From assembly GCA_049517335.1 (NCBI GenBank), contig JBEKSD010000011.1:9893-73892 (forward strand): DNA of 64,000 nucleotides, given 5' to 3'. The stretch's first letter is position 1. Each line of letters begins with the position of its first letter. Below are positions 22,133 to 64,000 of the stretch, one piece after another. The translations under genes and the position numbers were made by a program. The notes under the pieces are model-generated. The model was not told the origin of the DNA and made no database searches. It saw nothing but the letters and a program-made list of their open reading frames with translations. This DNA comes from Candidatus Omnitrophota bacterium. Lineage in GTDB: Bacteria > Omnitrophota > Gorgyraeia > Gygaellales > Profunditerraquicolaceae.

Positions 22133-23989
22133 ATGGATAATAAAGTTTCTTGGAAAAAAGTCACAACCGTTTATAGTTTTAAGGATTCAAAGACTGTCCG
22201 CGTTTTTGGTGTCGTCCGCGTATCGACAGATAAGCAGGCGCAGAAAATAGGCGAATCATTAGATCATCAGAAAGAAGTCCTTAAAAATTGGGTGAGGTCT
22301 AAATCAAGCCTGCACGCTCCCCAAGAATGGGGGCTTGTTGATATTTTTGTAGAAAATGAGGGTCCGGACGGCCAGAGAAAAGGACGGACTGCAACAAAGC
22401 GGGAAGGAAGAAGGGGATTAGCCAAAGCTCTTGAGCTTGCTAAATTAAAGCTTATTGACGTCGTTGTTGTAACAAAGCTGGATCGGATAGCTAGGAATGT
22501 AAGAGATTACATAGACATATCAGCAGAATTCAATGAGAGCGGCGTGGCGCTTGTCTGTTTAGATCTTGACATTGATACTTCAACGCCTGATGGACAGATG
22601 ATAATGCGTAATCACGCTAATCTTGCTCAATGGCAAGCGGAACGAATAGGGCAATATAGCATAGAAACCGTCCTAAGGCATCTTAACCAAGGGCGCCCGA
22701 TAGGTCCACCACCCATCGGTTACCGGATAAGCAAAGACTCTAATGGCAAGACTACTTATGAACCAGATCCTGCTTATAGGAAGCACGTTGAATTTATTGA
22801 TCAACTATATTTGAGAGTGAAAAGTGTTGGAAAAGTTGTCGATATCTTACACCAAAAGGGATATAAATCTAAGCGTAACAAGACGTATTCAAAGCCTATG
22901 GTATCTCGTATTCTCCAGAATATCCGCTATATTGCAAAGCAAGAACATGATGGAAAAATTTATGCCGGGAATTGGGAACCATTAAGAAGTGAAGACGTTT
23001 ATAAAACGATTCAGGCTACTTTCAAGAGAAATAGGCTGAGTAATCACAGTCCAAATAGCTCAAATCATCACTACGTCTACCTTGCTAAAAGCCTACTTAA
23101 ATGCAGCAGTTGCGGTTCAACCATGATCACAAGACCAGCTACCGGTAGAGGCGGGAAATATTATCCCTATTATATGTGTATGAAAGCATTTAAGACTAAT
23201 GGCATTGATTGCGAAGAAACCAATTATTTAGCATCAGAAGCTGTGGACGATGCGATTATTGAGATTTTACGGCATTTACATTTAAATCCTGATAATGTTG
23301 CTGAGATTATAAAAAAAGCTAACCAGGCGACTGCATCAACGATAGGGATTTTGGAGGATGATTTGGATAGGGTCCAAGCAAGCTTAAAAGATGTCCGCAC
23401 CAAAATTGCCAATTTAGTCGAGATACTCTCAGATAAGGGAATGGCAGGGATTGATGCAGTTAAGGAAAGGCTGGGAACCCTAAATCAAGACGAATCAGAG
23501 CTTGTCCTTGAAGAAAACAGACTGAAGTCAGAAGTTCAGGCAGAGAAGGTACAGGCTGGGACAGCTCATGAGTATATCAAGACATTACAGTTATTTGAAG
23601 ATTACTATGTGATGAATCAAAATAATAGGGAGCGTCTCCAGGCAATTCTTCCTAGAATAGTTAATTCAGTTATCTGTGAAATTAATGACAGGAAAAAGGG
23701 TATGGGCAAACTTAAGATTGGCTTATTCGGACGGCCTTTTAATAGAGGTCAGAACGCTGAGATATGGAATAAAACATTACAAAAAATAGCCGATGAGTGT
23801 TATAATAATAAAGTTTTTGAAGAAGCTAATGGTAAGTTCGGAACAAAAGCTTATAAAGAGAGAAATCCTTCTTCAGGCGCAGGAGTTCTCGTTAATTCAG
23901 ATAAACGGTATTATAATGTTTGTGGTTCGCAGAGGGTAACTTCTGTGACCCCAGTATCTCCTATCTCTATGTGGCACAATGAGTTATAA
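22133..23989 (+). CDS. Large serine recombinase (resolvase catalytic domain + recombinase domain + Zn ribbon + coiled coil)
   Basis: VRVST catalytic Ser, KLDRIAR, PPIGY, LLKCSSCGSTM...YYMC...C. Confidence 0.93.
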   Translation: MDNKVSWKKVTTVYSFKDSKTVRVFGVVRVSTDKQAQKIGESLDHQKEVLKNWVRSKSSLHAPQEWGLVDIFVENEGPDGQRKGRTATKREGRRGLAKALELAKLKLIDVVVVTKLDRIARNVRDYIDISAEFNESGVALVCLDLDIDTSTPDGQMIMRNHANLAQWQAERIGQYSIETVLRHLNQGRPIGPPPIGYRISKDSNGKTTYEPDPAYRKHVEFIDQLYLRVKSVGKVVDILHQKGYKSKRNKTYSKPMVSRILQNIRYIAKQEHDGKIYAGNWEPLRSEDVYKTIQATFKRNRLSNHSPNSSNHHYVYLAKSLLKCSSCGSTMITRPATGRGGKYYPYYMCMKAFKTNGIDCEETNYLASEAVDDAIIEILRHLHLNPDNVAEIIKKANQATASTIGILEDDLDRVQASLKDVRTKIANLVEILSDKGMAGIDAVKERLGTLNQDESELVLEENRLKSEVQAEKVQAGTAHEYIKTLQLFEDYYVMNQNNRERLQAILPRIVNSVICEINDRKKGMGKLKIGLFGRPFNRGQNAEIWNKTLQKIADECYNNKVFEEANGKFGTKAYKERNPSSGAGVLVNSDKRYYNVCGSQRVTSVTPVSPISMWHNEL

Positions 23990-24053
23990 TAAGTATCCGA
24001 CGGAGAAATCTGTCGGAGATTTTTTATGTAGCGATGTCCCTAGGAGTTAGGGC
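23947..24053 (+). repeat. LSR-end copy of the repeat right half (GACCCCAGTA core, terminator, tail)
   Basis: GACCCCAGTA at 23947-23956; hairpin TCCGACGGA-GAAA-TCTGTCGGA with T run; tail tttttatgtagcgatgtccctaggagttagggc is nearly identical to 33808-33840 and 36599-36630. Confidence 0.75.
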
Positions 24054-24260
24054 GTTATTTCCGTCGGAGAATTTCGCAATATTTTAAAACAAGATCTCCG
24101 TCGGAGGAGACAGGAATATTAAGTGCCAATTTTAAAAAAATAGCGCAATTCCTCTCGTAGTTTATGGGCGCTAGTTTATGGCTATTTCGCGATATTGCCG
24201 AATATTGGCACATCTAAATATGCCATAAACTAGGGAATAGGCCAGTTTTTCGAGGATAAA

Positions 24261-24313
24261 CTAGAGAGGTTTCCTGCCGCGCAATATTTATGGGCGTCCT
24301 CACGGGAGTTACC
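24261..24313 (+). repeat. Type-B repeat copy 1 (shares the GAGAGGTTTCC left half)
   Basis: ctagagaggtttcctgccgcgcaatatttatgggcgtcctcacggg; related to 35419-35462 and 59998-60028. Confidence 0.6.
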
Positions 24314-24433
24314 TTTAACTTGATAGAGTTAATAATCTTGACAAGCGTTTTTTTGATACTATAATTATTCATCATACTAATATTCAGATATAAAAATATA
24401 TATGAAAAAATATAATTTTTTAGGAAGAACCCC

Positions 24434-24757
24434 ATGAATAAGGCGAACAGTTTAATTGAGCGGATCAAGGTTGGGCTGGTGATTGGGCTATTGGCGGCCT
24501 TGACCGGATGTGCGGGGTACTGGACTGAAGGTTATTACGGAGACACGATGATGGTATCGGGTCCGGAACCTGATATGTTTCTTTTCGGAGGCGACTATTA
24601 CGGGAGGGGCGATGCGCATAATTATAGCCATCGTGGATCTGAAAGTCGCAGGGTAGCGCATCCCAGTAGTAGACAAAATCATGGAGTAGTGCATTCCAGT
24701 ACTGTACAAAGTCACGGAACGGCGCATCCTAGTGGCGAGCAAAGGGGAAAGCGATGA
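24434..24757 (+). CDS. Hypothetical lipoprotein
   Basis: Lipobox LTGC; low-complexity tail. Confidence 0.65.
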   Translation: MNKANSLIERIKVGLVIGLLAALTGCAGYWTEGYYGDTMMVSGPEPDMFLFGGDYYGRGDAHNYSHRGSESRRVAHPSSRQNHGVVHSSTVQSHGTAHPSGEQRGKR

Positions 24758-33069: not shown

Positions 33070-33633
33070 ATGGCACAGAAAAAGATCGCTGTTTTTGTAG
33101 GAAGCCTGCGCAAAGAATCATTTAACTGCAAAATGGCCAAGGCGCTAATTAAGGTTTCACCCGAATCGCTCAAGTTAGAGATTATCGAGATCGAAGGACT
33201 ACCTTTATATAATCAGGACTTCGATGATAATCCTCCGGTTTCCTATACGCAATTCCGAGAATCTTTAAGAGAGTTTGACGCGGTTTTGTTTATTACACCC
33301 GAATACAATCGTTCCGTTCCCGCCGTGCTCAAGAACGCTATTGATGTGGGGTCGCGTCCCTATGGGCAAAGCGCGTGGAATGGGAAGCCGGGTGCTGTGA
33401 TGAGCGTCTCGCCTGGCGCTATAGGCGGATTCGGCGCAAATCATCATCTGCGCCAATCGCTGGTTTTCCTTAATGTTCCTACGATGCAACAGCCGGAAGC
33501 GTACATCGGGAATGCCGATAAGCTTTTTGATGAAAAGGGTAATCTTACTAACGATTCTACCCGTGAATTTATCACAAAGTTTATGCAGGCATTTGCAGAA
33601 TGGATTGCGCGCTGCACGTCAAATAAAAAGTAA
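33070..33633 (+). CDS. NADPH-dependent FMN reductase (ChrR-like)
   Basis: VGSLRKESFN, TPEYNRSVPAVLKNAID. Confidence 0.9.
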   Translation: MAQKKIAVFVGSLRKESFNCKMAKALIKVSPESLKLEIIEIEGLPLYNQDFDDNPPVSYTQFRESLREFDAVLFITPEYNRSVPAVLKNAIDVGSRPYGQSAWNGKPGAVMSVSPGAIGGFGANHHLRQSLVFLNVPTMQQPEAYIGNADKLFDEKGNLTNDSTREFITKFMQAFAEWIARCTSNKK

Positions 33634-33678
33634 TTGTGGCCTAAATTAGAGGGTATTCATCTGAGTATATGGCGATTG

Positions 33679-33840
33679 TGGTATAATTGACCTGTGTAAA
33701 TTAAGAGAGGTTTCCCCTCGGCTTATACGAGAGGGACCCCAGTAATATCGTTCTCCTCGCATAACGGGAGAGTTTAAGGCCTATGATCGGAATACCGGTT
33801 ATAGGCCTTTTTATCTAGCGAGTTCCCTAGGAGTTAGGGC
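33679..33840 (+). repeat. Type-A repeat copy 1 (promoter, core hairpin, terminator, tail)
   Basis: TGgTATAAT (33679-33687); core 33705-33744; terminator AAGGCCTATGATCGG-AATA-CCGGTTATAGGCCTT+T; tail ccctaggagttaggg. Confidence 0.9.
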
Positions 33841-34043
33841 ATCGCATTTATTAGCCGTATTTCGATTATATCCGTACCATAAGCTGTTTTAAAAGCCTCT
33901 CTGAATATCGCTGTTTAATCGCCAAAATAGGCCAATTCCTCTCTTATATAATGGTCGCTATATAATGAAAATATCGGCAATATTCGAGGTATTTTAGAGC
34001 TTTAGGAGGCCATTATATACAGGGAGAGAGGGGTTTTCTATCG

Positions 34044-34250
34044 TTACGCGGTAGGGTTTTTAAGCAACTTCTGCCACTTTTCTTTTTGTTTTTCCCAATC
34101 TAACTCGCGGCAGATTTCGCGGAGTTTGTATTCGGGGATAAAGGGAATGTTTGAATTGTCTGAAAACAGAATATCTTCTTGGATGCTTGGTGCAAGCATG
34201 AGCAGATTCATGAGTAGATAGATTTTAACCTGGTTTATATTAAGCCAGCC
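34044..34250 (-). pseudogene. Startless C-terminal remnant of a serine-recombinase-associated HTH tail
   Basis: Translates GWLNINQVKIYLLMNLLMLAPSIQEDIL...EYKLREICRELDWEKQKEKW, resembling the LAPxIQExIL...DWxxQ tail seen with phage-type LSRs. Confidence 0.6.
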
Positions 34251-34262
34251 AGGATGAAATCA

Positions 34263-36206: not shown

Positions 36207-36296
36207 TACAAGGAAGCAGCTTAATTAAACATATTAATTCAAGGAATAGTATCTGAACTAGCCAGCCAATTGAACAGCAGGGTAGTAAATTACCAA

Positions 36297-36630
36297 TGTC
36301 CGGACAAAGATAGGCGGACAACCCTATCTCCTAATTACTCAAAGAGTTACGCGATTTTAAGCCAAAAATGACCGGACAAAACGGACGCATTTTCGAGCTT
36401 TTTTGTCCGTCACCAGGCCAGTAATGTGCCTCTCTAAAGCAGATAATTCTTGCTCTAATAGGGTAAGGGCTATATAATTGGTAGCTAGGAATTAAGAGAG
36501 GTTTCCCCTTGGCTCATACGAGAGGGACCCCAGTAATATCGTTCTCCTCATAGTATTGGATAGTTTAAGGCCTATGATCGCAGTAGCGGTTATAGGCCTT
36601 TTTATCTGGCGATGTCCCTAGGAGTTAGGG
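36297..36630 (+). repeat. Type-A repeat copy 2, full length (CGGACA module, promoter, core, terminator, tail)
   Basis: TTGCTC-17-TATAAT (36450-36478); core 36496-36535; the upstream ~150 bp aligns with 56702-56870. Confidence 0.92.
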
Positions 36631-48211: not shown

Positions 48212-48240
48212 TCCAAAAATAAATCATTCTTTAATGGCAA

Positions 48241-48453
48241 TGTCCGCCTCCCAAGGGCGGACATTCTGTATGCATTTATCTCTCAAATAGTTACATAATT
48301 CCAAGTCAAAAAATACCGGACAAATAAGACAAATACCACGAGCAAATAACCTCTCTAAATCCAGAATATTCTTGATATAGTGAGGTATTGCATATATAAT
48401 TACCCCTGTAAATAGAGAGAGGTTTCTACTCGGCTCATAAGAGTGGGACCCCA
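48241..48453 (+). repeat. Type-A repeat copy 3
   Basis: TGTCCG..CGGACA module; TTGATA-17-TATAAT (48372-48400); core 48417-48453. Confidence 0.88.
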
Positions 48454-48542
48454 ATTTTTTATAAAATTAATGGCTGAGAAATGAAAGAATATAAGGTCAC
48501 TATTCGCATTCCGCAATACAAGTACTAAATAATAAGGAAAGA

Positions 48543-49061
48543 ATGGAGCTGAAGCAGAAGATATTGCGCGAATTAAAAACGTACTGGGTAAATGTACTGT
48601 ATATAACTTTATTTTTCAGTATTTTCACCGATTACCGCAGATTAATGCTGGCTCATTATCAGATTACCTATAAGAATTATGGGATCAGTTTGATTAAGGG
48701 GTTGGTGTTAGCCAAGGTGATCCTGGTGGCAGAGCATTTGCACCTCGGAAGGGGATTTGAAAATAAAGCTTTAGTCGTCCCGACCCTGTACAAATCGTTT
48801 CTGTTTACTATTTGTGTTGCGATTTTAAGCGTAATAGAGGCTATGGTCCGCAATTTTTTAAAAGCAGAAAATTTTACCGGAGTGCCGGATATGTTTATAA
48901 GATGTTTCTCGTATGAATGGTTTGCCGGCATGCTGGTGGTATTCGCTGCTTTTATCCCGTTTTTTGCGATCAGGGAATTAGGAAGAGTGTTGGGAAGGGG
49001 AAAAATCAGTGAGCTATTTTTCCGTAAGGGGACAGACACCAAAACAAACCTTCCCGAGTAG
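48543..49061 (+). CDS. Four-TM membrane protein (single-gene block)
   Basis: Hydrophobic ORF filling the gap between repeat copies 3 and 4. Confidence 0.8.
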   Translation: MELKQKILRELKTYWVNVLYITLFFSIFTDYRRLMLAHYQITYKNYGISLIKGLVLAKVILVAEHLHLGRGFENKALVVPTLYKSFLFTICVAILSVIEAMVRNFLKAENFTGVPDMFIRCFSYEWFAGMLVVFAAFIPFFAIRELGRVLGRGKISELFFRKGTDTKTNLPE

Positions 49062-49140
49062 AGTAAGAGCTATATAATTGAATTGCTAGGCGTAAATAGC
49101 GAGAGGTTTTCCCTCAGCTCATGCAAGAGGGACCCCAGTA
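49050..49140 (+). repeat. Type-A repeat copy 4
   Basis: gtaagagctatataattg; core 49101-49140. Confidence 0.88.
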
Positions 49141-49300
49141 AATTCTCTCTCACAGAGTTACCACAATAGGCGGGGCATACCTGCAAAGCGCTAAAGGATG
49201 CCTTGGCGGTATATTAGCTTATAACGGAACAGAGATCTTGAAAGTTGGGGATAAGATTTTAGCTGTTCCTATAGCTTTGCTTTTGAGTTAAACATAAGCG

Positions 49301-51889: not shown

Positions 51890-51930
51890 TTACTCATACT
51901 TGGTCAGGCAGGTTTACAAAAGAGGAGAAT

Positions 51931-52077: not shown

Positions 52078-52585
52078 CCCTTTTTGTTAATTTGCAGATT
52101 TGAAGACTTGGAATTTGGTCCGTGAAAATCTAAAGAGAAAAAACTAAAAGGGCACCGCCTGTTATCATAAAATACAGTGGCAAGGATGAACGCAAAAATT
52201 TTAAACGTTTTTTTTGAAGCGAAGAAAACAGATATCTTTTAAACAGCGATTTTACCTTTCTGCTGTAAATTTGTTTGTAATTATTCCGTTTCACTCCTGA
52301 TAATAATACCTGATTAATCCTCCGGGTTTTGATTGACGTTTTATCTGACCGGTGTTATTCACGGTGCATGTTCAAGCAATTGATTGTTTAAGGATGAATG
52401 TGGTCGTGTTGTATTGTAGTGTTTTCATATTGTTTGGGACATAAAAGGGGTTTTTGTACGCTAAATCCGTCATTTTTAAACAATTCATCGAACTTTCCCG
52501 AAAATTTTGTATCCCGGCCAGGGATTAATAACTTTTTAAGGGCTCTTCGGCCATCAAGAAAGGTAGTATAGTAGAATTTAATAAA

Positions 52586-53566: not shown

Positions 53567-53833
53567 GGACAGCTAATATTCTAAGTCAATCGGCGAAAAA
53601 ATTATAGCTGGTTTTTCTTTCAGTTTCAGTATAAATCTCCGGCCTCATCGGGGATTAAAAATGCTTTCACCGGTTGAATTTCTGAGGCAAAACGGATTGA
53701 CAGTCAAAGCGTTAAATTCTAATATCAGCTTGTACAGAAAAAGGGGTACGGTCATAGAGACAGGAGGTTTCAATAGATGCAGTGAATATTTTTAAAAACG
53801 CGCTATACAAGCTCGGGAAAGTGAGGTGTAAAG

Positions 53834-54115
53834 ATGGATGGAAAAAAAATGTTCATAAAGAACAACGACGTTGTGACAAGGGAGATTGAGGGCGAGGTTA
53901 TTCTTATGCCCCTGCATAGTTCATCAAAGGATCTTAACTATATCTATACCCTTAATGATACAGCATCTTACGCATGGTCTCTTATGGACGGCAAGACGGC
54001 TTTGTCGGATATAAAAGGCCGCATTATGGACAGGTATGAAGTGGATGAGGCAAAACTTGATAAAGAACTCGGTGAGCTTATAAAAGATCTGCGTTCTATT
54101 AAGGCGCTGATTTAA
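53834..54115 (+). CDS. PqqD-family RiPP recognition element
   Basis: VVTREIEGEVIL...YTLNDTA..AW.LMDG. Confidence 0.9.
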   Translation: MDGKKMFIKNNDVVTREIEGEVILMPLHSSSKDLNYIYTLNDTASYAWSLMDGKTALSDIKGRIMDRYEVDEAKLDKELGELIKDLRSIKALI

Positions 54116-54122
54116 AATCAAT

Positions 54123-55094
54123 ATGATGGAAACTTTTTTAAATATAGCCGATATAATTATCGGAATAAAGAGTAAATTTGCCCCGGAAAAAGAAACTGCC
54201 AGCCGTTTTCGCTACAGCAACTTTATTCTAAAAAACAGACCGCGGAAAGCCGACATAAAGATTACACTTAAGGTAATACCAAAATACAGGATATTCAGAC
54301 GCGAGGCGCTTTTTAAAACCGAAATGGATGTCCCGAAAAGTTACCGCTTGGAACTAGATAGATTGCCTGAATCGGGCCGCCGGAATTTGAGCCAAGCGGA
54401 AGAACGGTATCTTGGAAGCGGCCTTAATTGGCGGATCGAAAAATCCGGCCGGAAGATATTGATAGAAGGATGGACTTCCGGACGATATCAACTGCTGATA
54501 AACGAAGATTTGACTAATGGCGAGCTGTTTATAATAAACTCCGGCAATGACTGGAAATTGACAGACGTCATCTATGGATTTCTGCAGGTCTTAATAATCT
54601 ATTATATGGCTAAGCGGCGAATCGGAATATTATTTCATTCTGCCGGGGTGAGGGAAGGCAAAAATGGTTATCTTTTCGCGGGCATTAGCCGGGCGGGTAA
54701 ATCTACCACGAGCAGGATCTGGGACAAGATTCCGGGTATTAGAATTTTAAACGATGACCGGATTATAATAAGAAAAGATAAGAACGATCTTTATATGTAT
54801 CCGACGCCGTGGCACAGCAATTATTCGGATTATCTAGCAGAGGGTAGAGTCAGGAAGGCCAGATTATCAAAACTTTTTTATATATACCACCGGGAAACAA
54901 ACCTCGCCGAAAGGGTAAATTATTTAGAAGGGTTCAATCATTTTTTCAAGACACTCTTCCTCTCTTTTTGGGACAAGGGGTGCGTCAATTTCGCCTTTGA
55001 CTTTCTTTTAGATATACTGTCCCAAAAACCCTGCTACAAATTTGGCTTTAAGAACGACGAGAGAATAGTTAGTTATATAAGGAATCTGAAATGA
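54123..55094 (+). CDS. HPr-kinase-related P-loop protein (ScmC/HPr-rel-like)
   Basis: LFHSAGV...FAGISRAGKSTT...LNDDR...YPTPW. Confidence 0.8.
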   Translation: MMETFLNIADIIIGIKSKFAPEKETASRFRYSNFILKNRPRKADIKITLKVIPKYRIFRREALFKTEMDVPKSYRLELDRLPESGRRNLSQAEERYLGSGLNWRIEKSGRKILIEGWTSGRYQLLINEDLTNGELFIINSGNDWKLTDVIYGFLQVLIIYYMAKRRIGILFHSAGVREGKNGYLFAGISRAGKSTTSRIWDKIPGIRILNDDRIIIRKDKNDLYMYPTPWHSNYSDYLAEGRVRKARLSKLFYIYHRETNLAERVNYLEGFNHFFKTLFLSFWDKGCVNFAFDFLLDILSQKPCYKFGFKNDERIVSYIRNLK

Positions 55095-55103
55095 AGGAAT
55101 TAA

Positions 55104-55126
55104 GCTCGACCGGTGCAAAAAATATA
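55104..55126 (+). repeat. 23-bp direct repeat, second copy at 58993-59015
   Basis: GCTCGACCGGTGCAAAAAATATA is identical at both sites. Confidence 0.8.
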
Positions 55127-55271
55127 ACCGGTTTTTAAGAATAAAGGAAATGGGTTCTTACTTCTCTTCCTTAAAAACTGGTACAACTTATGTGACAGGT
55201 CAAAAGGGACATATGAGGGGAAAAGGATATCTTAGAAATAGTAGAAGAGTTGTTAAATAGAAAAATGCTGG

Positions 55272-56387
55272 TTGAGGTTCGCTGACGTGACCTGTAAAAA
55301 CTCCGATTATCAGGAATTCTGCAGCCAGGTTTATAAATACGTCCCTGCTTGCGAAGAGATAGACAAGAAGAATATAAATTCTTCATTTATTTTAAGTAAT
55401 TCATATGAATCGGGGTTAGTCTTACAGATCTTTGAACTGGGAAGGTTATTTGTAGAAAAGAAGATGGTTAAATTCCATCCCCAGGGAACCTGTATGTACC
55501 CCTGCATCCGGCCGCGAGATACTTTATATATCGAGCCCAGGAGCGTAGGCGAAGTTAAAATAGGGGATATTGCAGTTTACCGGCGTTATAACCATTTATT
55601 TGCCCATCGCACTATTGCTAAAGGTAATGATAATGGGCGGGATTATATTATTACCCGGCCAGATACCGCTAAATTTGGAAATGACGGCCCGAGTTTTGAC
55701 CAGGATATTTTAGGCATAGTAGCCCGGGTTGAAAGAAAGGGAAAAACTTTAGGCATTACAAGAAAAGATTACCCTTTAGTAAAACGGTTTTTCTTCAATC
55801 TTTATCTCCAGTATTATCATCTGAGACAATACCTCTGGATTAAAATAATTTATTTTATCAGCCATATACAGCAATATCAGGCCTATCAAAAGTTTGCCCG
55901 GTTTTTATTCATAAAATCAAAGAAAAAAATCGAATTTTCCCTGCAGGCGCCAATCAGCCCTAAGGCAAACAGCATGTTTTTTAGGGGACTTTCTACAAAA
56001 GAACTTTTAGAATCCCTAAAGTCAGAATCGCCTATTTCCAAGTGGACGATTGCTTTAAATATAAACTCTAAGCCAGCAGGCTGCCTCTCATTTGTCTTTA
56101 AGCCCGGAAATTGCCCGTTTTGCGGTTGGTGGCTTTATGAGGCCAAGTTAAGAATCAGATACAGGAGAACGAATTTAGAGAAAAGGCTTTTACAGGAGAC
56201 CTATAACTTATTGAAAGAGTCAGGCATAAAGAAAGTATCAATTAGCGTATTTAAAGACGCGCCTTTAGACAGAAAGATTTTTAAAAATATGGGTTTTAAA
56301 GAAGTATCCACCTATAAAGATATTTTTCTTAAAGACAAAAATAAAGAACCTGTTGAACGCCTGATAATGAAAAAAGAAATTGTATAA
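55272..56387 (+). CDS. S24/S26 peptidase-like domain + C-terminal GNAT-like domain
   Basis: GTCMYPCIRPRD...GDIAVY...AHR; C-terminal R.RYRR...E..L...F.NMGF. Confidence 0.7.
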   Translation: MRFADVTCKNSDYQEFCSQVYKYVPACEEIDKKNINSSFILSNSYESGLVLQIFELGRLFVEKKMVKFHPQGTCMYPCIRPRDTLYIEPRSVGEVKIGDIAVYRRYNHLFAHRTIAKGNDNGRDYIITRPDTAKFGNDGPSFDQDILGIVARVERKGKTLGITRKDYPLVKRFFFNLYLQYYHLRQYLWIKIIYFISHIQQYQAYQKFARFLFIKSKKKIEFSLQAPISPKANSMFFRGLSTKELLESLKSESPISKWTIALNINSKPAGCLSFVFKPGNCPFCGWWLYEAKLRIRYRRTNLEKRLLQETYNLLKESGIKKVSISVFKDAPLDRKIFKNMGFKEVSTYKDIFLKDKNKEPVERLIMKKEIV

Positions 56388-56400
56388 ATAGTTTAATTCC

Positions 56401-56655
56401 ATGAAAGATAAATTTATATCCAAAATTCCTTTGCTTGAATTTAACCTTTGGAATAAGTTTAAGTCCGGTGAAAGAAAACTGGTTTCTTTTGACTTGGAAT
56501 TAACTGGCCGCTGTAATAACAATTGCCGGCATTGCTATATAAATCTGCCAGTTAATGATAGCCAGGCAGTTCACAAGGAGCTAACCAAGCTTCTAGAACT
56601 TAAAGTTATTAAGTCGGTGGGAGAAGGTAGGGCTTTGCACTACATATTGGTATAG
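56401..56655 (+). pseudogene. Chimeric remnant: radical SAM N-terminus fused to a Fic-type winged-HTH C-terminus
   Basis: ELTGRCNNNCRHCY then abruptly QAVHKELTKLLELKVIKSVGEGRALHY. Confidence 0.7.
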
Positions 56656-56658
56656 ATT

Positions 56659-56694
56659 TTGGTTGATGATTTGGTTGATGCTTCAGTTGATGAT
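56659..56694. repeat. Three tandem 12-mers
   Basis: ttggttgatgat ttggttgatgct tcagttgatgat. Confidence 0.75.
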
Positions 56695-56701
56695 TTGATC
56701 G

Positions 56702-56948
56702 TGTCCGGACAAAGTGAGGCGGACAACTCTATCGCTAAACCGCTCAAAGAGTTACGCAATTTCCAGCCCAAAATGACCGGACAAAACGGACACATTTTAG
56801 GGCTTTTTTTGTCCGTCACCAGCCCAGTAATCCGCGAGGAATAGCCTCTCTAAACCCAGAATACTCTTGATATATTAAGGTATTGAGCCTATAATTGACT
56901 GTGTAAATTAAGAGAGGTTTCCCCTCGGTTCATCCGAGAGGGACCCCA
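56702..56948 (+). repeat. Type-A repeat copy 5
   Basis: CGGACA module; TTGATA-17-TATAAT (56867-56895); core 56912-56948. Confidence 0.92.
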
Positions 56949-57052
56949 AAATAATCTTTTATAAGGTATTGCGTATATAATTAGCCTTTTTGAGAAGCCC
57001 CAGTGATACATTTCTTTTTTATTATTGTAAGTGAAAATATAAGGGAGGCGCT

Positions 57053-57901
57053 ATGAAGAGAATGACTATTTTGGTTATCGGTATGGTTACGTTAATTACG
57101 GCTAATGTTTTCTGTATGGATATTAACACTATGATGTCGGTGCTTGAAAAAGCTAAAGAAGGTATACACGTCACGTTTGCTAACATAGATAAAGACCTTT
57201 CAGTAGCAGCAAAAAAGCTATCAAATATTGATTTGAAAGGGAAGGATGCGCGTAAGATACTAAGCGAGCTGTGTAAAGATCGGAATTATCTGGTTGATTG
57301 CGCTATTATCGATACCACCGGCAAGATGGTTATAGTTGAGCCAGCTGAATACGGGAAATATGAAGGCTCGGACATAAGTAAGCAAGCCCATATCATCACT
57401 CTTCTTCAGAACAAGAAGCCCATCTTTAGCGATGTCTTCCGTTCCGTCGAAGGTATAGAGGTCATAGATTTTGATTATCCTATATTCTCCGATAAAGGCG
57501 AGTTCCTTGGTTCGGTCAGTATGCTGGTAAAACAGGGTGCGCTCTCCGGCGATATCATTATGCCGCTTGTCAAAGATATGCCGTGCAAGGCATGGGTTAT
57601 GCAGAAAGACGGCCTGATCATCTACGATCCAGACCCAAATCAAATAGGGAGGAATATCTTTATAGATACGTTCTTCCGGCCTTTTAAAGATTTAGTTTCA
57701 TTTTCCAGAACTGTTGCCATGGCAAAAAATGGAGCTGGTTCATATGATTTTTATGCCAGAGGCCTGGAAGATAAAACACTAGTTAAGAAATATGCGGTTT
57801 GGGATACTGTTTCTTTGTATGGTATGCAATGGCGTATTATCGTAATGGAGGTTAATAGGCAGTTACCTATTGCAAAAGATGCAGCTAAGGCTCAGAAGTA
57901 A
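57053..57901 (+). CDS. Secreted Cache-domain protein (single-gene block)
   Basis: Signal-like N-terminus; GSDIS.Q.H, P.FSDVFRSVEG, W.MQKDG.IIYD. Confidence 0.8.
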   Translation: MKRMTILVIGMVTLITANVFCMDINTMMSVLEKAKEGIHVTFANIDKDLSVAAKKLSNIDLKGKDARKILSELCKDRNYLVDCAIIDTTGKMVIVEPAEYGKYEGSDISKQAHIITLLQNKKPIFSDVFRSVEGIEVIDFDYPIFSDKGEFLGSVSMLVKQGALSGDIIMPLVKDMPCKAWVMQKDGLIIYDPDPNQIGRNIFIDTFFRPFKDLVSFSRTVAMAKNGAGSYDFYARGLEDKTLVKKYAVWDTVSLYGMQWRIIVMEVNRQLPIAKDAAKAQK

Positions 57902-57904
57902 TCA

Positions 57905-57940
57905 GAGAAGTTTCCTCCTGGCTCATGCGAGAGGGACCCC
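57905..57940 (+). repeat. Type-A repeat copy 6 (core only)
   Basis: GAGAAGTTTCCTCCTGGCTCATGCGAGAGGGACCCC begins 3 bp after a stop codon. Confidence 0.85.
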
Positions 57941-58003
57941 CAAGTTATTTTAATTAGACTACTTTATTTATAAGAATTAAACGTCTTGAAGAAAAGAGAA
58001 AAA

Positions 58004-58507
58004 ATGAAGAAAGTACTCATAAGCACTCTTTATTTAGGCATGGTTTTGGCTATAGTTAACGGATGTACCACAATCCAGAAAGTCACCTACACGAAATCAG
58101 GCAGCATGGCCGGTCTGAAAAACTATGCTTGGCTGACTGATTCGCCACAGATAGTAGGAGAGCTGCGGACTGATAAATGGTCAGTCGATTCGCAGATAAG
58201 AAGACAGATTGATAATGAACTGGCTTCAAAGAGTTATGTAAAAACTATTAAAAGCAAAGCCGATTTCTATATTAATTATAAATTATCGGTACTGACACAG
58301 GAGAATATTTTATTCAGTAAAGAGATTGGTTCTTCAGTGGAAGAAATGGACAAAGGTTCTTTGGCTATCGAGGCAATCGATCCGCGCTCTGAGATGCCCA
58401 TCTGGCGGGGCGAACAGAAAGCCAAAACCTACCGCTATGATTTTATCGAAAGTAGGTTGAATCTTATCAAAAACTCTATACGCCAAATCTTAAGCAATTT
58501 TCCTTAA
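58004..58507 (+). CDS. DUF4136-like lipoprotein (single-gene block)
   Basis: VNGC lipobox; KNYAW; GSLAIE.ID....IWRG. Confidence 0.8.
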   Translation: MKKVLISTLYLGMVLAIVNGCTTIQKVTYTKSGSMAGLKNYAWLTDSPQIVGELRTDKWSVDSQIRRQIDNELASKSYVKTIKSKADFYINYKLSVLTQENILFSKEIGSSVEEMDKGSLAIEAIDPRSEMPIWRGEQKAKTYRYDFIESRLNLIKNSIRQILSNFP

Positions 58508-58553
58508 CCTTATAGTTCAGCATTCCGGATATTTGAGTTGTTTGACTCTCTCC

Positions 58554-58686
58554 GGCCAGTAATTCGTCTCTCTAGGACAGATAATTCTTGCGCTAATAGG
58601 GTAAGGGCTATATAGTTGTAGCTAGGAATTCAGAGAGGTTTCCCCTCGGCTCATACGAGAGGGATCCCAGTAATATCGTTCTCCTC
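58554..58686 (+). repeat. Type-A repeat copy 7
   Basis: TTGCGC-17-TATAGT; core 58633-58672; closest in sequence to copy 2. Confidence 0.92.
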
Positions 58687-58855
58687 GGGGATTATCGGAG
58701 ACATCGTAGTCGGGGTTGTAGGAGCTATGCTTGGTGGATGGATGGGGAGAATAATGGGAATATATCCCGGTAGTTCAATTGGTGCGTTTCTAATGGCTCT
58801 TGTAGGTGCGGTGGTCTTAGTAGGCCTGACGCGTTTGGTAGTAAGAAACGTATAG
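58687..58855 (+). pseudogene. 5'-deleted second copy of the GlsB/YeaQ gene
   Basis: Near-identical to 36988-37135; fused directly to repeat copy 7. Confidence 0.9.
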
Positions 58856-58897
58856 GTGAGTAGAATGTGTCGAAGGAACATTCTTAGAAGAAATAAG

Positions 58898-58960
58898 GCA
58901 CAGACACCCGGCGCTAATCTGAATTGCGCGGGTGTTGTGTCCGTACACAAGACACCCGGG
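58898..58960. repeat. REP-like palindromic cluster
   Basis: cacagacacccgg / cgggtgttgtgtc / cacaagacacccgg. Confidence 0.5.
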
Positions 58961-59064
58961 GATTTTGTGGTAATTGTAGAACCTATCATTAGGCTCGACC
59001 GGTGCAAAAAATATAGCCGATCTATAAAGGGTAATCTAGCATTAAGCGCGTTCGCGAGGGCAGG

Positions 59065-59934
59065 ATGTCCATAGTAGAGCCTGTTATAAGACCACCGGCG
59101 GAAGCGGACAGCTTTCTTTTGCAGGTAACGCTTGGATGTTCAGCGGATAGCTGCAGTTTTTGCGGCGCGTATAAGAGTAAAACTTTTCGCGTCAAAGACC
59201 GAAAAGAGATAACGGCGGACATAAATTGGTACGCACACAGATACCAAGACACGCGGCGTATTTTTCTTATAGACGGCGACGCCCTTGTTCTGGCCAATAG
59301 CAAGCTTGTTCCTATCTTAGAAGAACTGGATGCGGCCTTTCCTCGGCTAACCCGTATTTCAAGCTACGCGAACGGTTACAATATCACAAGAAAAAATGAT
59401 CATGAACTGGCAGAGCTATACAAGCATAAGCTAAGCCTTATTTACATGGGCCTCGAAAGCGGCAGTCAGGGCGTGCTTGATCGGTGCGGAAAATCTTCAA
59501 GCGTTGAGGAAATGATCGAGGCGGTCAATAAGGCGGCCAAGGCTCATATAAAGTCTTCCGTGATTGTTTTACTGGGGTTAGGCGGCAAGAAGCATTCCGA
59601 GGAGCATGTCAAAGGCACCATAGCGGCATTAAACAGGATGCAGCCAAGATACCTTTCGTTTCTTTCCCTGATGGTCATTCCCGGCACGCCGCTGGCGGAA
59701 GAGGTCAGAAGAAGAGAATTTGAGGAATTAAATTCTACGGAGTTATTAAAAGAGTCTTATGGGATTATAAAGGGAGTGGATCTTAAGAAAACCGTATTTC
59801 GATCGGATCACGCTTCAAACTATCTCGCGCTGGAAGGGGCGTTTCCCAAGGATAAAATGACGCTGTTAAATATCCTGGAATCCGCCATTGGCGGTGAGAT
59901 AAGGCTGAAGCCGGAGAGCTTAAGAGGCTTGTAG
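59065..59934 (+). CDS. Radical SAM protein
   Basis: IRPPAEA..LLQVTLGCSADSCSFC; GLESG; FRSDHASNY. Confidence 0.88.
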   Translation: MSIVEPVIRPPAEADSFLLQVTLGCSADSCSFCGAYKSKTFRVKDRKEITADINWYAHRYQDTRRIFLIDGDALVLANSKLVPILEELDAAFPRLTRISSYANGYNITRKNDHELAELYKHKLSLIYMGLESGSQGVLDRCGKSSSVEEMIEAVNKAAKAHIKSSVIVLLGLGGKKHSEEHVKGTIAALNRMQPRYLSFLSLMVIPGTPLAEEVRRREFEELNSTELLKESYGIIKGVDLKKTVFRSDHASNYLALEGAFPKDKMTLLNILESAIGGEIRLKPESLRGL

Positions 59935-59997
59935 TAAAAAACGGTCCCTCCCGGAGTAAAGATCACGGTCACCTTTCAAATTCCCTAATAGCTATGT

Positions 59998-60028
59998 CTA
60001 GAGAGTCTTTCCTTTGTGCAATATTTAT
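59998..60028 (+). repeat. Type-B repeat copy 3 (partial)
   Basis: ctagagagtctttcctttgtgcaatatttat compared with 24261 ctagagaggtttcctgccgcgcaatatttat. Confidence 0.5.
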
Positions 60029-60108
60029 TTAAAAATTACCCAGCTATTAGGCGTATAATCAAACTATATTTAAGGATAATTCAACAACTCTAATAGGAAA
60101 AATACAGG

Positions 60109-61581
60109 ATGAGAATAATTCAAATAGAAACCAATAGTAAGGTGAGTGTTAGAGTATGCAAATTAAAACAGAGTGGTAAAAAAATGTTTAGAATAGGTTT
60201 TCTTCAATGTCAGATTGTCAAGGAATTACCCCATATGAATATGCCTCTTTTTGTTCATGATATAAAGGCTCTTGGTTGTAGTTTTGAGTGCATTTGCGCG
60301 GCCCATAATAAATTAAATGACTTAATCGAATACATAAAGAAAAAGAAATTTGATTTGATCGCAGTAGATTACACTTTCCCCATCATGTTCCTTAATGAAT
60401 TAAAAGAGTTATTTCCTAAAAGTAAATTTGTTATAGGAGGAAGCGGATTTTTGGATACCTTTTTAAAGAGTACTATAGATTTTGCTGTAATTGGAGCGGG
60501 GAAGGAAAGTTTTTTAAGATTAGCAGAGGCCTTAAAAAATAAAACGGATGTATGCGAAATCCCCAATTTGCTTTTCAGAATAAAGAAAAGCAATAGAATG
60601 TTTATAGATTATTCAGGAAAAAATGTTAATTTTGATTTAAAGAGGGAATTATTACCGTATAATCCATTTCTTAAATGGAAATACATCGGATTTACAAGGA
60701 GGGACAAAGTTACTGATCCACCAGCAATTATTGCAGGCTTTGGGTGTGCCTATCGATCTAGAAAATTAAATCATAATTATGATAATCTCTCCAAACATGC
60801 GTTGAGCAGACATACATTTTCAGCAAAAGCAAGGAAGAGGATTATGGATTTGTTTGAGGAGCGGACGCACGGAGGGTGCAGTTTTTGTACGTGTGTTGGC
60901 ACACATGTTTTTTTACCCGTTAAAGAGACGATTGCCTGCTTGATGGAGCAGATCCATTTCTTACAAAAAACATATAAATTTAAAAGTTTTGTGGTCGGAA
61001 GCAAGAATCCCTTTAGATTTATTGAGCAACTGATTCATCAAATGGTGGAAGAAAATATTAACATAGAGACATTGGCTATACGCAGTAGGGTGGATTGGGT
61101 GAACAAAAATAAAAGAATATTGCTTAAAATAGTAGCTTTAGCTAAAAGAAATAATTTTGTGATTAGTCTGCAGCAATTAGGATTTGAGAGTTTTATTCAA
61201 AACGATCTGGATATATATAACAAAGGATATAGGGTAACTGAAAATTTTAAAGCAGTAGAATTAATGAGGAAACTCAAGAATATCGCCCCTAGAAATTTTC
61301 AAGATGGAGGGCATGGCTTCATTGGTATTAATCCCTGGATAACGCTACGGGATTTGGAAAAGTATTGTGAATCGGCAGAACATATGCAATTTCTATTTGA
61401 CTTATATCATTTTGGCAATGGTTTGGTTCTATACGATAGCTGTCTGCCTGTTTATTAGAAATTAAAAAAAGATGGGCTGCTGATTGAGTCTAAGACGGAT
61501 TTAGACCGTTGGAGATTTAAAGATAAAAATGTATTGCGTTTTATTAATGATTTTTATAACGGGCTTGATTATGAGACATAA
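60109..61581 (+). pseudogene. B12-binding-like radical SAM protein with an in-frame TAG at 61456-61458
   Basis: VIGG, GAGKE, GCAY...GCSFC, GFES; the frame continues KLKKDGLL...RFKDKNV to TAA 61581, 6 bp before the next gene. Confidence 0.7.
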
Positions 61582-61587
61582 CCTATA

Positions 61588-63114
61588 ATGGAAATATTGC
61601 TTTCTTCTATCTGTCTTGAAACCGGCACCGACATTCAGCTGGCCCTTTATTATTTAAAGGGTTATGTTCTAAAGATTAAGCCATCATCTGACATAAACAT
61701 ACGGGTTTTTAACGAAAACCAGAATATACTCGATATCATAAAAAAGATCCTTGACCTCAAGCCCTATCTTATCGGGTTTTCCTGCTATCTCTGGAACATT
61801 AAGAAAATTTTAAATATCTGCCGTCGGTTAAAAGAGATAAGCCCGGGCTTAAAGATTGTTTTAGGCGGCCCGGAAGTAAGCCCGCGCGCAGAAGAAATAT
61901 TGGCTAAAGAAAAAGCAATTGATGTAGTGGTAAAAGGAGAGGGCGAGGAGAGTTTCGCGCAATTAGTCGCCCAGATGGGGCGCACCCGCATATCCTTTAA
62001 AAGGGGTGCTGCCCAGACGGGGCGCTCTATAGCCGCAGATCTATCGGGTATTATAGGGATTTCATTTCGTAAAGGGGCAGAGATAATCCGTAATTCGGAT
62101 AGGCCGCTCTTGCGCAATGTCGGTGATATCCCTTCGCCGTATCTCTCTGGCTTGGTAAACCTCAAAGACAAAAATATTGTAGATGTGCCTTTGGAAACCA
62201 TGCGCGGATGTTCTTCCCGCTGCCACTATTGCTATTATCATAAGAATTTTCCTGTGGTGAGGTATTTTTCTCTTAGCCGGGTAGAGAAGGAGTTAAAGCT
62301 TATTCTCTCGCATAAGCCTCACGAAGTATACCTGATGGATCCTACCTTTAATTCCAACTCCCAAAGGGCAAAAAAGATCCTTAAAATCTTTATTAGATAT
62401 AATCAGGGCGCTAACTTGCATGTGGAGTTAAAAGCAGAACTGGTTGATGAAGAGATGGCTCGGCTTCTATCACAGGCCAATGCCTATAATATAGAAATCG
62501 GTATTCAGAGCACAAATCCCAAAACCCTAAAAGCGATCAACCGCAGGTTTAATAAAGAAAAGTTTATTAAGGGTATCCGTTACTTAAATAAATTTAAGCT
62601 TTACTATGAAATACAGCTTATTGACGCGCTCCCCCATCAGAGCTATGACAGCCTGATGAAATCTTTGGACTGGCTTTACTCAATGCACCCGGCAAAAGTG
62701 GTGATCTTTCGCCTGGCTATGCTTCTCGGAACAACATTACGGGATAGAGCTGCAAGCTTTGGTATTGAATATGATCATTGCGCGCCGTATTCTGCCTATA
62801 AAAGTAATGCTATGACTGATACGGAAGTAAAAAGTGTCGAGAAGTTATCTTATGCCATGGACCGGCTTTATGACAGCCAAGTGTTTCAGAAAACGCTCTT
62901 CGCTTTTAAGGCAAGAGCAGGGGTAAAGATCTCTACGATACTGGAGGATTGGGTGGCCTGGGAGAGCCGTTTTAAAAGGCAACCTGCAGATTACCCGGAA
63001 TTCTTAAATAAAAAATCTCCTATATTTCTGCAATACCTCTGTCGCAAACACTCTAAAGCCTATCTTTATAAGGAGCTTTTGCCGGGGTTGCTTAAGGGGT
63101 TATGTTTTCCCTGA
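61588..63114 (+). CDS. B12-binding radical SAM protein
   Basis: GFSCYLWN, LGGPEVS, GEGE, RGCSSRCHYC, EIGIQS. Confidence 0.9.
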   Translation: MEILLSSICLETGTDIQLALYYLKGYVLKIKPSSDINIRVFNENQNILDIIKKILDLKPYLIGFSCYLWNIKKILNICRRLKEISPGLKIVLGGPEVSPRAEEILAKEKAIDVVVKGEGEESFAQLVAQMGRTRISFKRGAAQTGRSIAADLSGIIGISFRKGAEIIRNSDRPLLRNVGDIPSPYLSGLVNLKDKNIVDVPLETMRGCSSRCHYCYYHKNFPVVRYFSLSRVEKELKLILSHKPHEVYLMDPTFNSNSQRAKKILKIFIRYNQGANLHVELKAELVDEEMARLLSQANAYNIEIGIQSTNPKTLKAINRRFNKEKFIKGIRYLNKFKLYYEIQLIDALPHQSYDSLMKSLDWLYSMHPAKVVIFRLAMLLGTTLRDRAASFGIEYDHCAPYSAYKSNAMTDTEVKSVEKLSYAMDRLYDSQVFQKTLFAFKARAGVKISTILEDWVAWESRFKRQPADYPEFLNKKSPIFLQYLCRKHSKAYLYKELLPGLLKGLCFP

Positions 63115-63196
63115 TCATAAATAACTTGTAGAAAGTGGTTGTTTGAAGTAAAATCTTTATCTACGCGGTATCTTAAGCGGGATTAAGGAGAGTATT

Positions 63197-63349
63197 GTGA
63201 CCAGAGATAATTATTCATATAAAAAGTATCAGAAAGAATTGGTCAGTAAAAAGAAGGCAGAGGAAAAGAAACAAAGAAAACTGGAGAAAAAAGCGATGGA
63301 GGCCACGCCTGTGTCTGGGCAGGCTCCCCCAATAACCAAGCTGTCTTAG
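63197..63349 (+). CDS. Small basic protein (50 aa, not in the ORF track)
   Basis: MTRDNYSYKKYQKELVSKKKAEEKKQRKLEKK; RBS aaggag. Confidence 0.7.
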   Translation: MTRDNYSYKKYQKELVSKKKAEEKKQRKLEKKAMEATPVSGQAPPITKLS

Positions 63350-63434
63350 AATAAAGAAATACTTGCAATCTTTTTTAAAAGTTCTATAGTCATAACTCAA
63401 GGCTAAATCTTTAGCAGAAATAAAAGGAGGAAAC

Positions 63435-63602
63435 ATGGCATATCAACAAGGTGGTGGCGGTGGATTTGGTGGTCCACGGGAGATGCACAAGGCTGTTTGC
63501 TCGGAGTGTAAGAAAGAGTGCGAAGTTCCGTTTAAACCAAGAGATGATCGTCCGATATACTGCAAGGATTGTTATTCAAAGCGCAAGAACGAAGGCCGTT
63601 AA
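63435..63602 (+). CDS. CxxC-x17-CxxC zinc-ribbon protein (55 aa)
   Basis: REMHKAVCSECKKECEVPFKPRDDRPIYCKDC; RBS aaggagg. Confidence 0.9.
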   Translation: MAYQQGGGGGFGGPREMHKAVCSECKKECEVPFKPRDDRPIYCKDCYSKRKNEGR

Positions 63603-63665
63603 AAGAAGAGATTTTGTTAGTTTTTTGTTTCTAATAGATCCGCAAAGGTAATGTTTTCAATCTTT

Positions 63666-63880
63666 CGCGAGGAATTCTTTCTCTGGTGCTCAAAAGTCCT
63701 CGATATAGTAGATATTATGCCTAAAATACAACCAGGCAAACAAGAGAGGTTTCTTTTCGGCTGATAGTAGTGGGACCCCAGTAATATCGTTCTCCTCGTA
63801 TAATGGGAGAGTTTAACGGCTATGATTCAAACAGCGGTCATAGCCGTTTTTATCTGACGCTGTGTTAAAGACTTAGGGGG
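63666..63880 (+). repeat. Type-A repeat copy 8 (diverged, with terminator and tail)
   Basis: Core 63744-63783; agtaatatcgttctcctcg; terminator AACGGCTATGA...TCATAGCCGTT+T. Confidence 0.88.
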
Positions 63881-63887
63881 TGAAACC

Positions 63888-64000
63888 ATGGAATATAAAA
63901 AGAATATGACAGAACAAGAAGTTCAGGCTGCCCTTGAATTCGCCGGAAACATCATAGATTCCGTGCGTGAACCCTTAGTAGTCCTGGATGGGGATTTAAG
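63888..64000 (+). CDS. PAS-domain protein, runs off the window
   Basis: AGNIIDSVREPLVVLDGDL resembles the PAS start of 44913..46193. Confidence 0.7.
   Translation, partial: MEYKKNMTEQEVQAALEFAGNIIDSVREPLVVLDGDL

Follow-up and report, generated by a model that had tools for sequence, protein, structure and literature searches.

Can a serine recombinase head a variable gene array in the manner of an integron? Integrons consist of a tyrosine integrase (IntI), an attI site and arrays of attC cassettes; their array always adjoins the integrase and their recombination sites are specific to the system. The question is raised by a 64,000-nt stretch (the window) of contig JBEKSD010000011.1 (C11) from Candidatus Omnitrophota bacterium, where a gene encoding a large serine recombinase (LSR) is followed by eight direct copies of a short hairpin sequence, hereafter the core. 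A preliminary description of this DNA had proposed that the ~40 kb to the right of the LSR are its cassette array, delimited by the cores. Our analysis points in another direction: the repeats are probably a promoter-leader module that is found lineage-wide and doubles as a tRNA-like integration target within a variable island, and not the sites of a serine-recombinase integron. The window belongs to assembly GCA_049517335.1 (1.45 Mb, 31 contigs; the own genome, G000), whose other contigs are labeled C1, C3, C7, C8, C10, C17, C18, C21 and C28. Genomes of relatives carry G numbers, and matching contig stretches from genome or metagenome collections carry L numbers.

A repeat search of the window returned one direct family of eight 48-nt copies, 71–83% identical to the reference copy, starting at 33704, 36495, 48416, 49100, 56911, 57904, 58632 and 63743 with successive spacings of 2791, 11921, 684, 7811, 993, 728 and 5111 nt. 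The 36-mer given in the preliminary description finds four of the eight copies within 3 mismatches (0 expected, 100 shuffles), and a profile of the eight recovers every one of them from the own genome at E 1e-12 to 1e-16, the next-best matches standing at E 0.0095 (C28) and E 0.029 (C21). All eight are intergenic in a mechanical list of open reading frames (ORFs). The eight direct copies described earlier were therefore confirmed; their size was not, because the ~40-bp repeat is only the core of a much larger repeated unit that aligns over 60–260 nt between copies. Some cores continue into what we call a trailer, and the copies are laid out as follows:

33477..33841, + strand: copy 1, weak or partial promoter part; core 33705-33740; trailer 33741-33841
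36247..36630, + strand: copy 2, full promoter module; core 36496-36531; trailer 36532-36630 (terminator scan)
48219..48460, + strand: copy 3, promoter module and core (48417); ORF 48543 starts 90 nt on
49059..49146, + strand: copy 4, short promoter part and core (49101); radical-SAM/PqqD cluster downstream
56666..56957, + strand: copy 5, promoter module and core (56912); ORF 57053 starts 105 nt on
57904..57949, + strand: copy 6, bare core with the promoter part absent; 4 nt past the stop of 57053-57901
58554..58677, + strand: copy 7, partial promoter and core (58633), fused directly to a Transgly_assoc-type gene fragment
63609..63878, + strand: copy 8, promoter part; core 63744; trailer 63780-63878; contig end 122 nt further

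The cores part the region into cargo blocks of 1 to ~10 genes with unrelated functions. Blocks of about 0.7–12 kb, three of them with a single gene, had been reported, and this agrees with the spacings of 684–11921 nt and with the single ORFs at 48543-49061, 57053-57901 and 57986-58507, the last of which starts 45 nt after the core of copy 6. Block 49101-56912 carries three radical-SAM genes and a PqqD-like gene, which fits the cluster for a ribosomally synthesized and post-translationally modified peptide that had been assigned to it; its precursor was not identified. Similarly, the cargo genes do lie on the + strand as described, and cores are co-oriented with each other in 24/24 multi-copy loci and 31/31 adjacent pairs. 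We nevertheless dropped co-orientation as a sign of an array mechanism, because 1087 of 1176 adjacent ORF pairs in the own genome (92.4%, ORFs of at least 120 aa) are co-oriented as well. The strand bias of this genome is extreme, and several contigs are nearly confined to one strand (178/186 on + in C1, 5/109 on + in C3). Within the cargo, a Transgly_assoc-type small membrane protein gene is present twice, at 36988-37173 and 58688-58871 (87% alike over 187 nt). The first copy, the counterpart of the fragment fused to copy 7, lies ~490 nt after copy 2; the second abuts core 58633 without the trailer and the ~350 nt that part the first from core 36496.

What, then, is the repeated unit? The core forms its 3' end. 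In comparison with relatives, conservation reaches ~250 nt upstream of the core, and the entire module spans ~250–290 nt, 75–90% alike between families, from a sharp left edge at a TGTCCG..CGGACA hairpin to a right edge at CCCCA. A word CCTCTCTAAA and CGGACA direct repeats lie furthest upstream, followed by a AGAATATTCT palindrome that spans the -35 box of a sigma-70-type promoter (TTGnnn, 17 nt, TATAAT). In the listed copies, TATAAT is 16–17 nt from the core, and several upstream types exist. The core itself is a 36-nt hairpin ending GGGACCCCA, and the promoter geometry would put the transcript start ~9–10 nt before it. The amount of promoter kept by individual copies ranges from none to ~250 nt. 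Three window copies (33705, 36496 and 63744) run on into the trailer, made of a second hairpin, an intrinsic terminator and a tail; in related copies the letters of the second hairpin and the terminator change while the pairing is kept. A small ORF inside the core was considered and rejected, as the open frame has no preceding start codon. We also considered an invertible promoter flanked by ACCTCTCT/AGAGAGGT, and none was inverted relative to the core among the copies with their upstream region displayed.

The same promoter module also precedes a second type of leader in the own genome, consisting of AAGAGATAC, a hairpin with a GTGA loop and then GGGAC, at C7:3573, C10:4425, C28:7150 and C18:11211. 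In addition, a word with a beginning like that of the core, CAGAGAG[GT]T.TTTCTGCCGCGC..ATTT.TGGGC, is found at 24263-24300 of the window and in L004/L036, L020 and L026, either downstream of trailers or upstream of a module.

We then looked at the genes behind the cores. An ORF starts within 600 nt of 85 of the 102 core instances, and 72 of these 85 ORFs have no relative among the rest, the largest clusters comprising 4 and 3 members. ORFs of 100–660 aa begin 13–50 nt past the core. Nine downstream ORFs were compared with Pfam and gave GIY-YIG (three times), GreA, VTT, TENA with beta-lactamase, GYD, DUF5674 and, for one of them, no family. Since unrelated ORFs of 100–660 aa begin at so short a distance, the core is predicted to lie in the 5' untranslated regions of a variety of mRNAs. 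Likewise, the conserved promoter and its position 13–50 nt before the start codons of unrelated genes lead us to predict that the repeats work as expression modules. A riboswitch was dropped from consideration: the genes behind the cores have no function in common and belong to diverse Pfam families, which makes a metabolite-specific riboswitch unlikely.

Base pairing agrees with a role in RNA. Across 131 distinct core sequences, 97.2% of 1176 cells are paired, compared with 35–81% in slid controls. Where only one side of a pair differs, the change is nearly always G-U compatible on the + strand (77 cells against 33 unpaired), changes on both sides occur in 4 of 9 core pairs, and variant hairpins behind the same promoter on other contigs of the own genome keep the stem with other letters. 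The kept pairing, the G-U-compatible changes on the + strand and the variant hairpins together speak for a fold of the sense transcript rather than for a site in double-stranded DNA. Rfam 15 has no family for the repeat unit: its only match in the window is a cyclic di-GMP (c-di-GMP-I) riboswitch at 20756-20848, unit 36250-36700 gave chance-level matches only at permissive E (E > 1), and 20 related loci gave one tRNA and nothing naming the unit. ARAGORN found 0 tRNA genes in the window, and the core shares only its ..CCCCA end with tRNA-His.

The distribution of the core was determined with a covariance model among 40 relatives of the same order and with an exact IUPAC pattern in genome, metagenome and viral contig collections, stretches of up to 14 kb being taken around the matches. 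The core was found in 13 of the 40 relatives, in 5 families, with 1–4 copies each, and its distribution is patchy, with 9/24 genomes positive within the same family. The exact pattern matched 22 stretches in the species-genome collection, titled Omnitrophota/Omnitrophica, Ca. Gygaella or with other submitter names; it matched over 120 stretches of metagenome contigs, which is a lower bound, and 0 viral contigs. Altogether, the covariance model yielded 145 matches in 100 sources. In the own genome, strong copies of the core are confined to the window. The same promoter module with variant hairpins is present on seven further contigs (C28, C7, C18, C10, C21, C1 and C8). The first residues of the ORF behind one of these variant hairpins resemble GlmS, as read by eye. 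The preliminary description had named copies scattered genome-wide with no link to LSR loci as grounds for giving up its proposal, and the spread of the promoter module comes close to that.

Alternatively, the module could itself be a small non-autonomous "mobile promoter", carried by a transposase or by homing linked to GIY-YIG, and its link to the LSR would be incidental. The compact size of the module with its two sharp edges, its 75–90% likeness between families and its patchy occurrence agree with this, as does the fact that GIY-YIG genes form the largest downstream cluster (4/85). Clustering of cores is also general, with 24 of 97 loci holding two or more copies at a median spacing of 1.6 kb. 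We regard this explanation as unlikely, however. Terminal inverted repeats or target duplications were not evident by eye in the alignments, for which no formal search was made; no transposase stood beside the copies, as looked at only in ORFs near matches; copies are truncated to many extents; and viral contigs carry none.

We next turn to the recombinase and its surroundings, which contain the following features:

21322..21684, + strand: Replication-protein-O-like (RepO-like) helix-turn-helix gene (PF04492, E 4.8e-18)
21655..21717, no strand assigned: three GGGG-N8/9-CCCC palindromes, iteron-like, from a regex scan, overlapping the end of the RepO-like gene and reaching just past it
21828..22091, + strand: small ORF of 87 aa from TTG, no Pfam family, conserved part from ~21849
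22133..23989, + strand: LSR of 618 aa (Pfam Resolvase, Recombinase and Zn_ribbon_recom)
23945..23953, + strand: GTGACCCCA, where similarity to core and trailer begins within the last LSR codons; candidate recombination junction
23954..24063, + strand: diverged trailer of the kind that follows cores and tRNA or transfer-messenger RNA (tmRNA) genes, with its second hairpin, intrinsic terminator and tail CCCTAGGAGTTAGGG

The LSR (PF00239 at 1.7e-24, PF07508 at 3.7e-8, PF13408 at 1.2e-9) is the sole recombinase here, of the serine type and not a tyrosine IntI. A search of 400 genomes of the phylum returned orthologues with 82–85% identity in G342, G396, G101 and G237 and a further group at 53–62%; metagenome contig L077 carries another orthologue (83%). 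Between G101 and C11, synteny extends from C11:71 to 33806 (window 23914) at 80–96% amino-acid identity, and it takes in a 4403-aa protein, the RepO-like gene, the three palindromes and the small ORF. The RepO-like gene aligns upstream of the LSR in the window, G101, G342 and G237 and is part of the LSR-terminated block. The palindromes, with a putative iteron-like function, are conserved in the same four. The small ORF always lies directly upstream of the LSR (L077, G101, G342, G396, G237); a directionality factor is our guess. To the right of the LSR, no synteny was found between the window and G101. Because the left side is syntenic with G101 and the right side is not, a conserved block of at least 34 kb terminates on its right with the LSR and does not include the repeat array. 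Synteny with G101 stops 33 nt before GACCCCA, at 23914, and nucleotide homology with L077 stops at 23857; the integrase gene thus borders a syntenic block that stops at a candidate attachment site.

This layout bears directly on the proposed integron, in which the LSR would capture circular cassettes at its own 3' end and the cores would be attC-like sites, each with a promoter. Some of the evidence is on its side. The 3' end of the LSR carries the ..GACCCCA word of the cores and has right-hand partners in common with them; the recurrence there of GACCCCAGTA (23947), a terminator and the tail ..CCCTAGGAGTTAGGG, reported in the preliminary description, was reproduced, the 32-nt tail at 24021-24052 being common to 33808, 36599 and 63847. 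The region to the right of the LSR varies between G000 and G101, and the blocks hold few genes of unrelated function. Synteny also breaks once at the 3' end of a core: L114 and the window have both the gene preceding copy 48417 and the complete module in common, and similarity drops after ..GGGACCCCA. Breakpoints at cores, expected from cassette exchange between strains, are nonetheless only partly seen, as the 449-aa ORF at 60109-61458 is also present in L068, L093, L101 and L023, where its arrangement relative to the cores differs and the breakpoints are not always at a core.

The remaining evidence speaks against the integron. No core was found within 20 kb downstream of the G101 LSR, nor anywhere in G101 (96% complete) or G396, that is, in two of the four genomes with an 82–85% orthologue. 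Clustering of cores downstream of LSR homologues had been put forward as a check: LSR-like genes are common in the 40 relatives, with a best identity of 29% to the window LSR, and 13/13 core-bearing relatives lack this LSR type. With this query, an LSR-like match was on the same contig as the core in 3/13 (6–14.5 kb off), on other contigs only in 8/13 and absent in 2/13. Similarly, no LSR match accompanies the arrays of 3–4 co-oriented cores in L084, L089, L095, L101 and L103 over the 9–14 kb examined. Start codons of genes, that of greA among them, lie 13–50 nt behind cores, seven other contigs carry the promoter module, and the co-orientation of the cargo follows the 92% strand bias of the genome. 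Reads that join two cores had been proposed as a check on excision. Logan contigs of 4 runs, compared with 44001–64000, gave six joints between module copies, all with sides of at most 67 nt and most with extra letters between the sides; we read these as other module copies and rejected them as excision or deletion products, which leaves no informative joint. We therefore consider a serine-recombinase integron very improbable, and the claim that the ~40 kb are the LSR's cassette array is not supported.

The 3' boundary of the core is a different matter. All six LSRs of the 82–100% group end in AAC, N3-5, TG[GCT]GACCC(C)A and then diverge. The sequence that follows is the trailer in the window, a stretch called family Y in L077 and G237, a stretch called family X plus a GIY-YIG gene in G342 and TTTAGAAATGGGGTCC in G101, and all of these kinds are also found behind cores at other loci. 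Of just 10 occurrences of the word GNGACCCCA in the own genome, 6 are cores and 1 is the LSR end. In the 53–62% group, the LSR reading frame ends inside an antisense tRNA-His in 6/7 loci, the seventh being cut by the contig end. Three LSR paralogues of the own genome lie against tRNA-Asn (overlapping), tRNA-Glu and tmRNA. In L130 and L161, an LSR ORF of the C17 type extends through the core in antisense, and the C17 LSR itself runs into tRNA-Asn. Finally, remnants of the C7-type LSR follow core and trailer in L045, L118 and the window, as listed here with the associated word region:

33924..34040, + strand: region of direct and inverted words TATATAATG, after the copy 1 trailer
34056..34253, - strand: last 66 residues of a second-type (C7) LSR, convergent with copy 1 (tblastn 50% over 66 aa, E 2e-16)

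In L026 and L106, the C7-type LSR comes after tRNA-His and a trailer. Trailers likewise follow tRNA-His, tRNA-Glu, tRNA-Met and tmRNA directly past their CCA, and tRNA-His and the core have the ending ..CCCCA in common. These overlaps support the view that serine recombinases treat the 3' boundary of the core (..GACCCCA) as a junction, and in our reading cores may be used as attachment targets in the way tRNA 3' ends are. The preliminary description had taken the repeats for att sites or junctions of LSR-mediated capture, and in this respect the candidate junction supports it in part; capture of the 40 kb by this LSR is the part without support.

Several structured stretches accompany these boundaries. 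In family X, a long hairpin with loop TTAATGTAAA is followed by GGCAC..hairpin..GAAAGTGCC; it has no Rfam match, comes after a core or LSR end in L062, L078, L086, L112, L122, L128 and G342:C68, is repeated at least twice in L086 and often has a GIY-YIG gene next downstream. Family Y, a conserved stretch of ~170 nt also without an Rfam match, comes after a core or LSR end in L085, L108, L131, L018 and L077; in L077 it is overlapped by an opposite-strand ORF and may be the end of a reverse-strand gene. In L134:438-561, a core and a tRNA (anticodon His by eye) are convergent and 8 nt apart (..GGGACCCCA TTTAGAAA TGGGG..), and the same 8-nt spacer with the inverted word is found after the LSR end in G101 and after a core in L076.

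Behind the trailer at the LSR end, 24137..24280 (+ strand) consists of 10-nt words in direct and inverted orientation (TAGTTTATGG), a layout also found between the trailer and the reverse LSR on C7 and C18 of the own genome. The word regions there (C7:22909-23160 and C18:15903-16138) have locus-specific 10-nt words, TAGTAAATGG and TAGTTACTGG, and lie between the trailer and a convergent LSR gene. The word regions may be binding sites for the recombinase or an accessory protein.

Yet another origin of the repeats would be tandem accretion: LSR elements would have integrated one after another into a tRNA-like small-RNA gene, gaining one block per event and leaving the cores behind as direct repeats, comparable to the island arrays known from tRNA genes. 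Three or more LSR lineages lie against cores or trailers, one remnant (34056-34253) lies inside the array, the "trailer plus word region" of C7 and C18 recurs at 24054-24280 and 33842-34060, and the uneven retention of the promoter could be seen in the same light. Against this, only 1 remnant and 1 intact LSR stand for 8 copies; 5/8 copies keep the upstream promoter, which is not expected from att duplications of a 3' end; the C11-type LSR junction duplicates only 9 nt; and many single cores precede ordinary-looking genes. Such accretion thus appears quite unlikely to us. A 288-aa ORF at 34263-35129 (- strand), next to the remnant, was rejected as a further LSR remnant; it has no paralogue in the own genome and no Pfam family.

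Taken together, we favor a promoter-leader module that doubles as an integration target. From left to right, it would comprise the upstream hairpin with CGGACA words, the sigma-70-type promoter, a transcript start ~9–10 nt before the core and the 36-nt leader hairpin ending GGGACCCCA. Most copies would act as 5' leaders of unrelated genes, and some, with core, second hairpin and terminator, as stand-alone small-RNA-like units; the hairpin might stabilize the mRNA or bind a common factor. Reuse or propagation would have placed modules before accessory genes, and they cluster in variable islands. The ..CCCCA end resembles the tRNA-His 3' end, and several serine-integrase lineages would insert at or beside the core as they do at tRNA and tmRNA genes. 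In the window, a block of at least 34 kb might have integrated into one core-plus-trailer unit, with the crossover presumably near ..GTGACCCCA, leaving this word and the trailer at the 3' end of the LSR.

Several observations weigh against this view. All 8 strong copies of the own genome lie within one 30-kb stretch by the LSR, and L077 has three co-oriented modules within 3.3 kb downstream of its 83% LSR orthologue, a point that also speaks for the integron. LSR insertion into cores does not fully explain this clustering. Integration of the LSR block into a core is deduced from one junction only, because the left junction is off C11 and none was recognized in 20 kb further left in G101; no empty site for the block was found either. 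G101 and G396 carry ..GGGACCCCA at the LSR end although no core is detectable in either genome, so this word may be part of the LSR's own site and not of a target. Covariation in the core is modest, because its sequence is nearly invariant. The sequencing runs that contain the region comprise 7 DNA and 0 RNA runs, and the transcript start, transcription of the core and any processing are putative. Lastly, ~250 nt of promoter region that are 75–90% alike across families exceed what a promoter needs, which points to a recent spread of the module by some mechanism.

How does the locus compare with known systems? As in integrons, a recombinase gene stands beside a variable, co-oriented array of short blocks parted by a repeated structured site. 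In contrast to integrons, the recombinase is of the serine type, the repeats come with promoters of their own and act as 5' leaders, they occur genome- and lineage-wide without this recombinase, and the conserved block of the recombinase is on its other side. The locus thus fails the defining features of integrons. Integrative elements and genomic islands at tRNA and tmRNA 3' ends are also comparable: the LSRs overlap or abut the 3' ends of tRNA-His, tRNA-Asn, tRNA-Glu and tmRNA as well as the ..CCCCA of the core, the integrase lies at the end of the element and remnants pile up. Integrases that target tRNA genes are mostly tyrosine recombinases, whereas those found here are large serine recombinases, and the target in this case is not a tRNA but a multi-copy, promoter-proximal 36-nt hairpin. 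Like the cis-regulatory leaders and small RNAs in Rfam, the unit has a promoter-proximal hairpin, partly with a terminator, in the manner of an attenuator or small RNA; unlike them, it has no Rfam 15 match and its downstream genes have no common function. The locus fits a combination of reused or mobile promoters, leader hairpins or small RNAs, and serine-integrase elements at tRNA-like targets, which to our knowledge have not been described together. Promoter reuse and putative mobile promoters have been recognized from highly similar upstream regions before non-homologous genes, within a genome and between taxa (Mob Genet Elements 2012, PMC3575422), and we find the same here, with near-identical upstream regions in one genome and in different genomes preceding genes that are not homologous. 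Compared with those cases, the present unit adds a structured 5' leader with a fixed 3' edge, arrays and serine-integrase junctions. None of the papers listed in a full-text literature search dealt with promoters or non-coding RNAs of Omnitrophota, and among the titles and abstract openings retrieved on serine recombinases and tRNA genes, none describes such a target.

A bolder reading, with a small chance of being right, takes the core for a dispersed mimic of the tRNA-His 3' end, a landing pad at which a family of serine integrases places cargo behind a strong, standard host promoter and leader, and hence for a serine-recombinase platform of capture and expression. If so, it would be a functional analogue of integron attI plus Pc, its repeated use would build the co-oriented arrays present on many Omnitrophota contigs, and it would represent a second, independent solution to the problem solved by integrons. 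Returning to the promoter-leader module, Omnitrophota are uncultured, and a near-invariant 36-nt leader that follows a conserved promoter, is absent from Rfam and was found over 140 times in genomes and metagenomes offers a handle on accessory-gene expression in small genomes. LSRs are of interest for genome engineering because their attachment sites are short, and those that target tRNA-His, tRNA-Asn, the flanks of tmRNA and tRNA-Glu and, in addition, a non-tRNA mimic would widen the known target range.

Two features further to the left in the window complete the picture. The 4403-aa ORF (1145-14356, + strand), which is conserved at 80–96% amino-acid identity in the genome G101 from a different genus, has a central M28/M20 peptidase-like stretch and otherwise weak HEAT and ERM-helical matches only. 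The c-di-GMP-I riboswitch at 20756-20848 (- strand; 75.1 bits against a gathering threshold of 35) is located directly upstream of ORF 20098-20763 (- strand), which encodes a receiver-domain protein.

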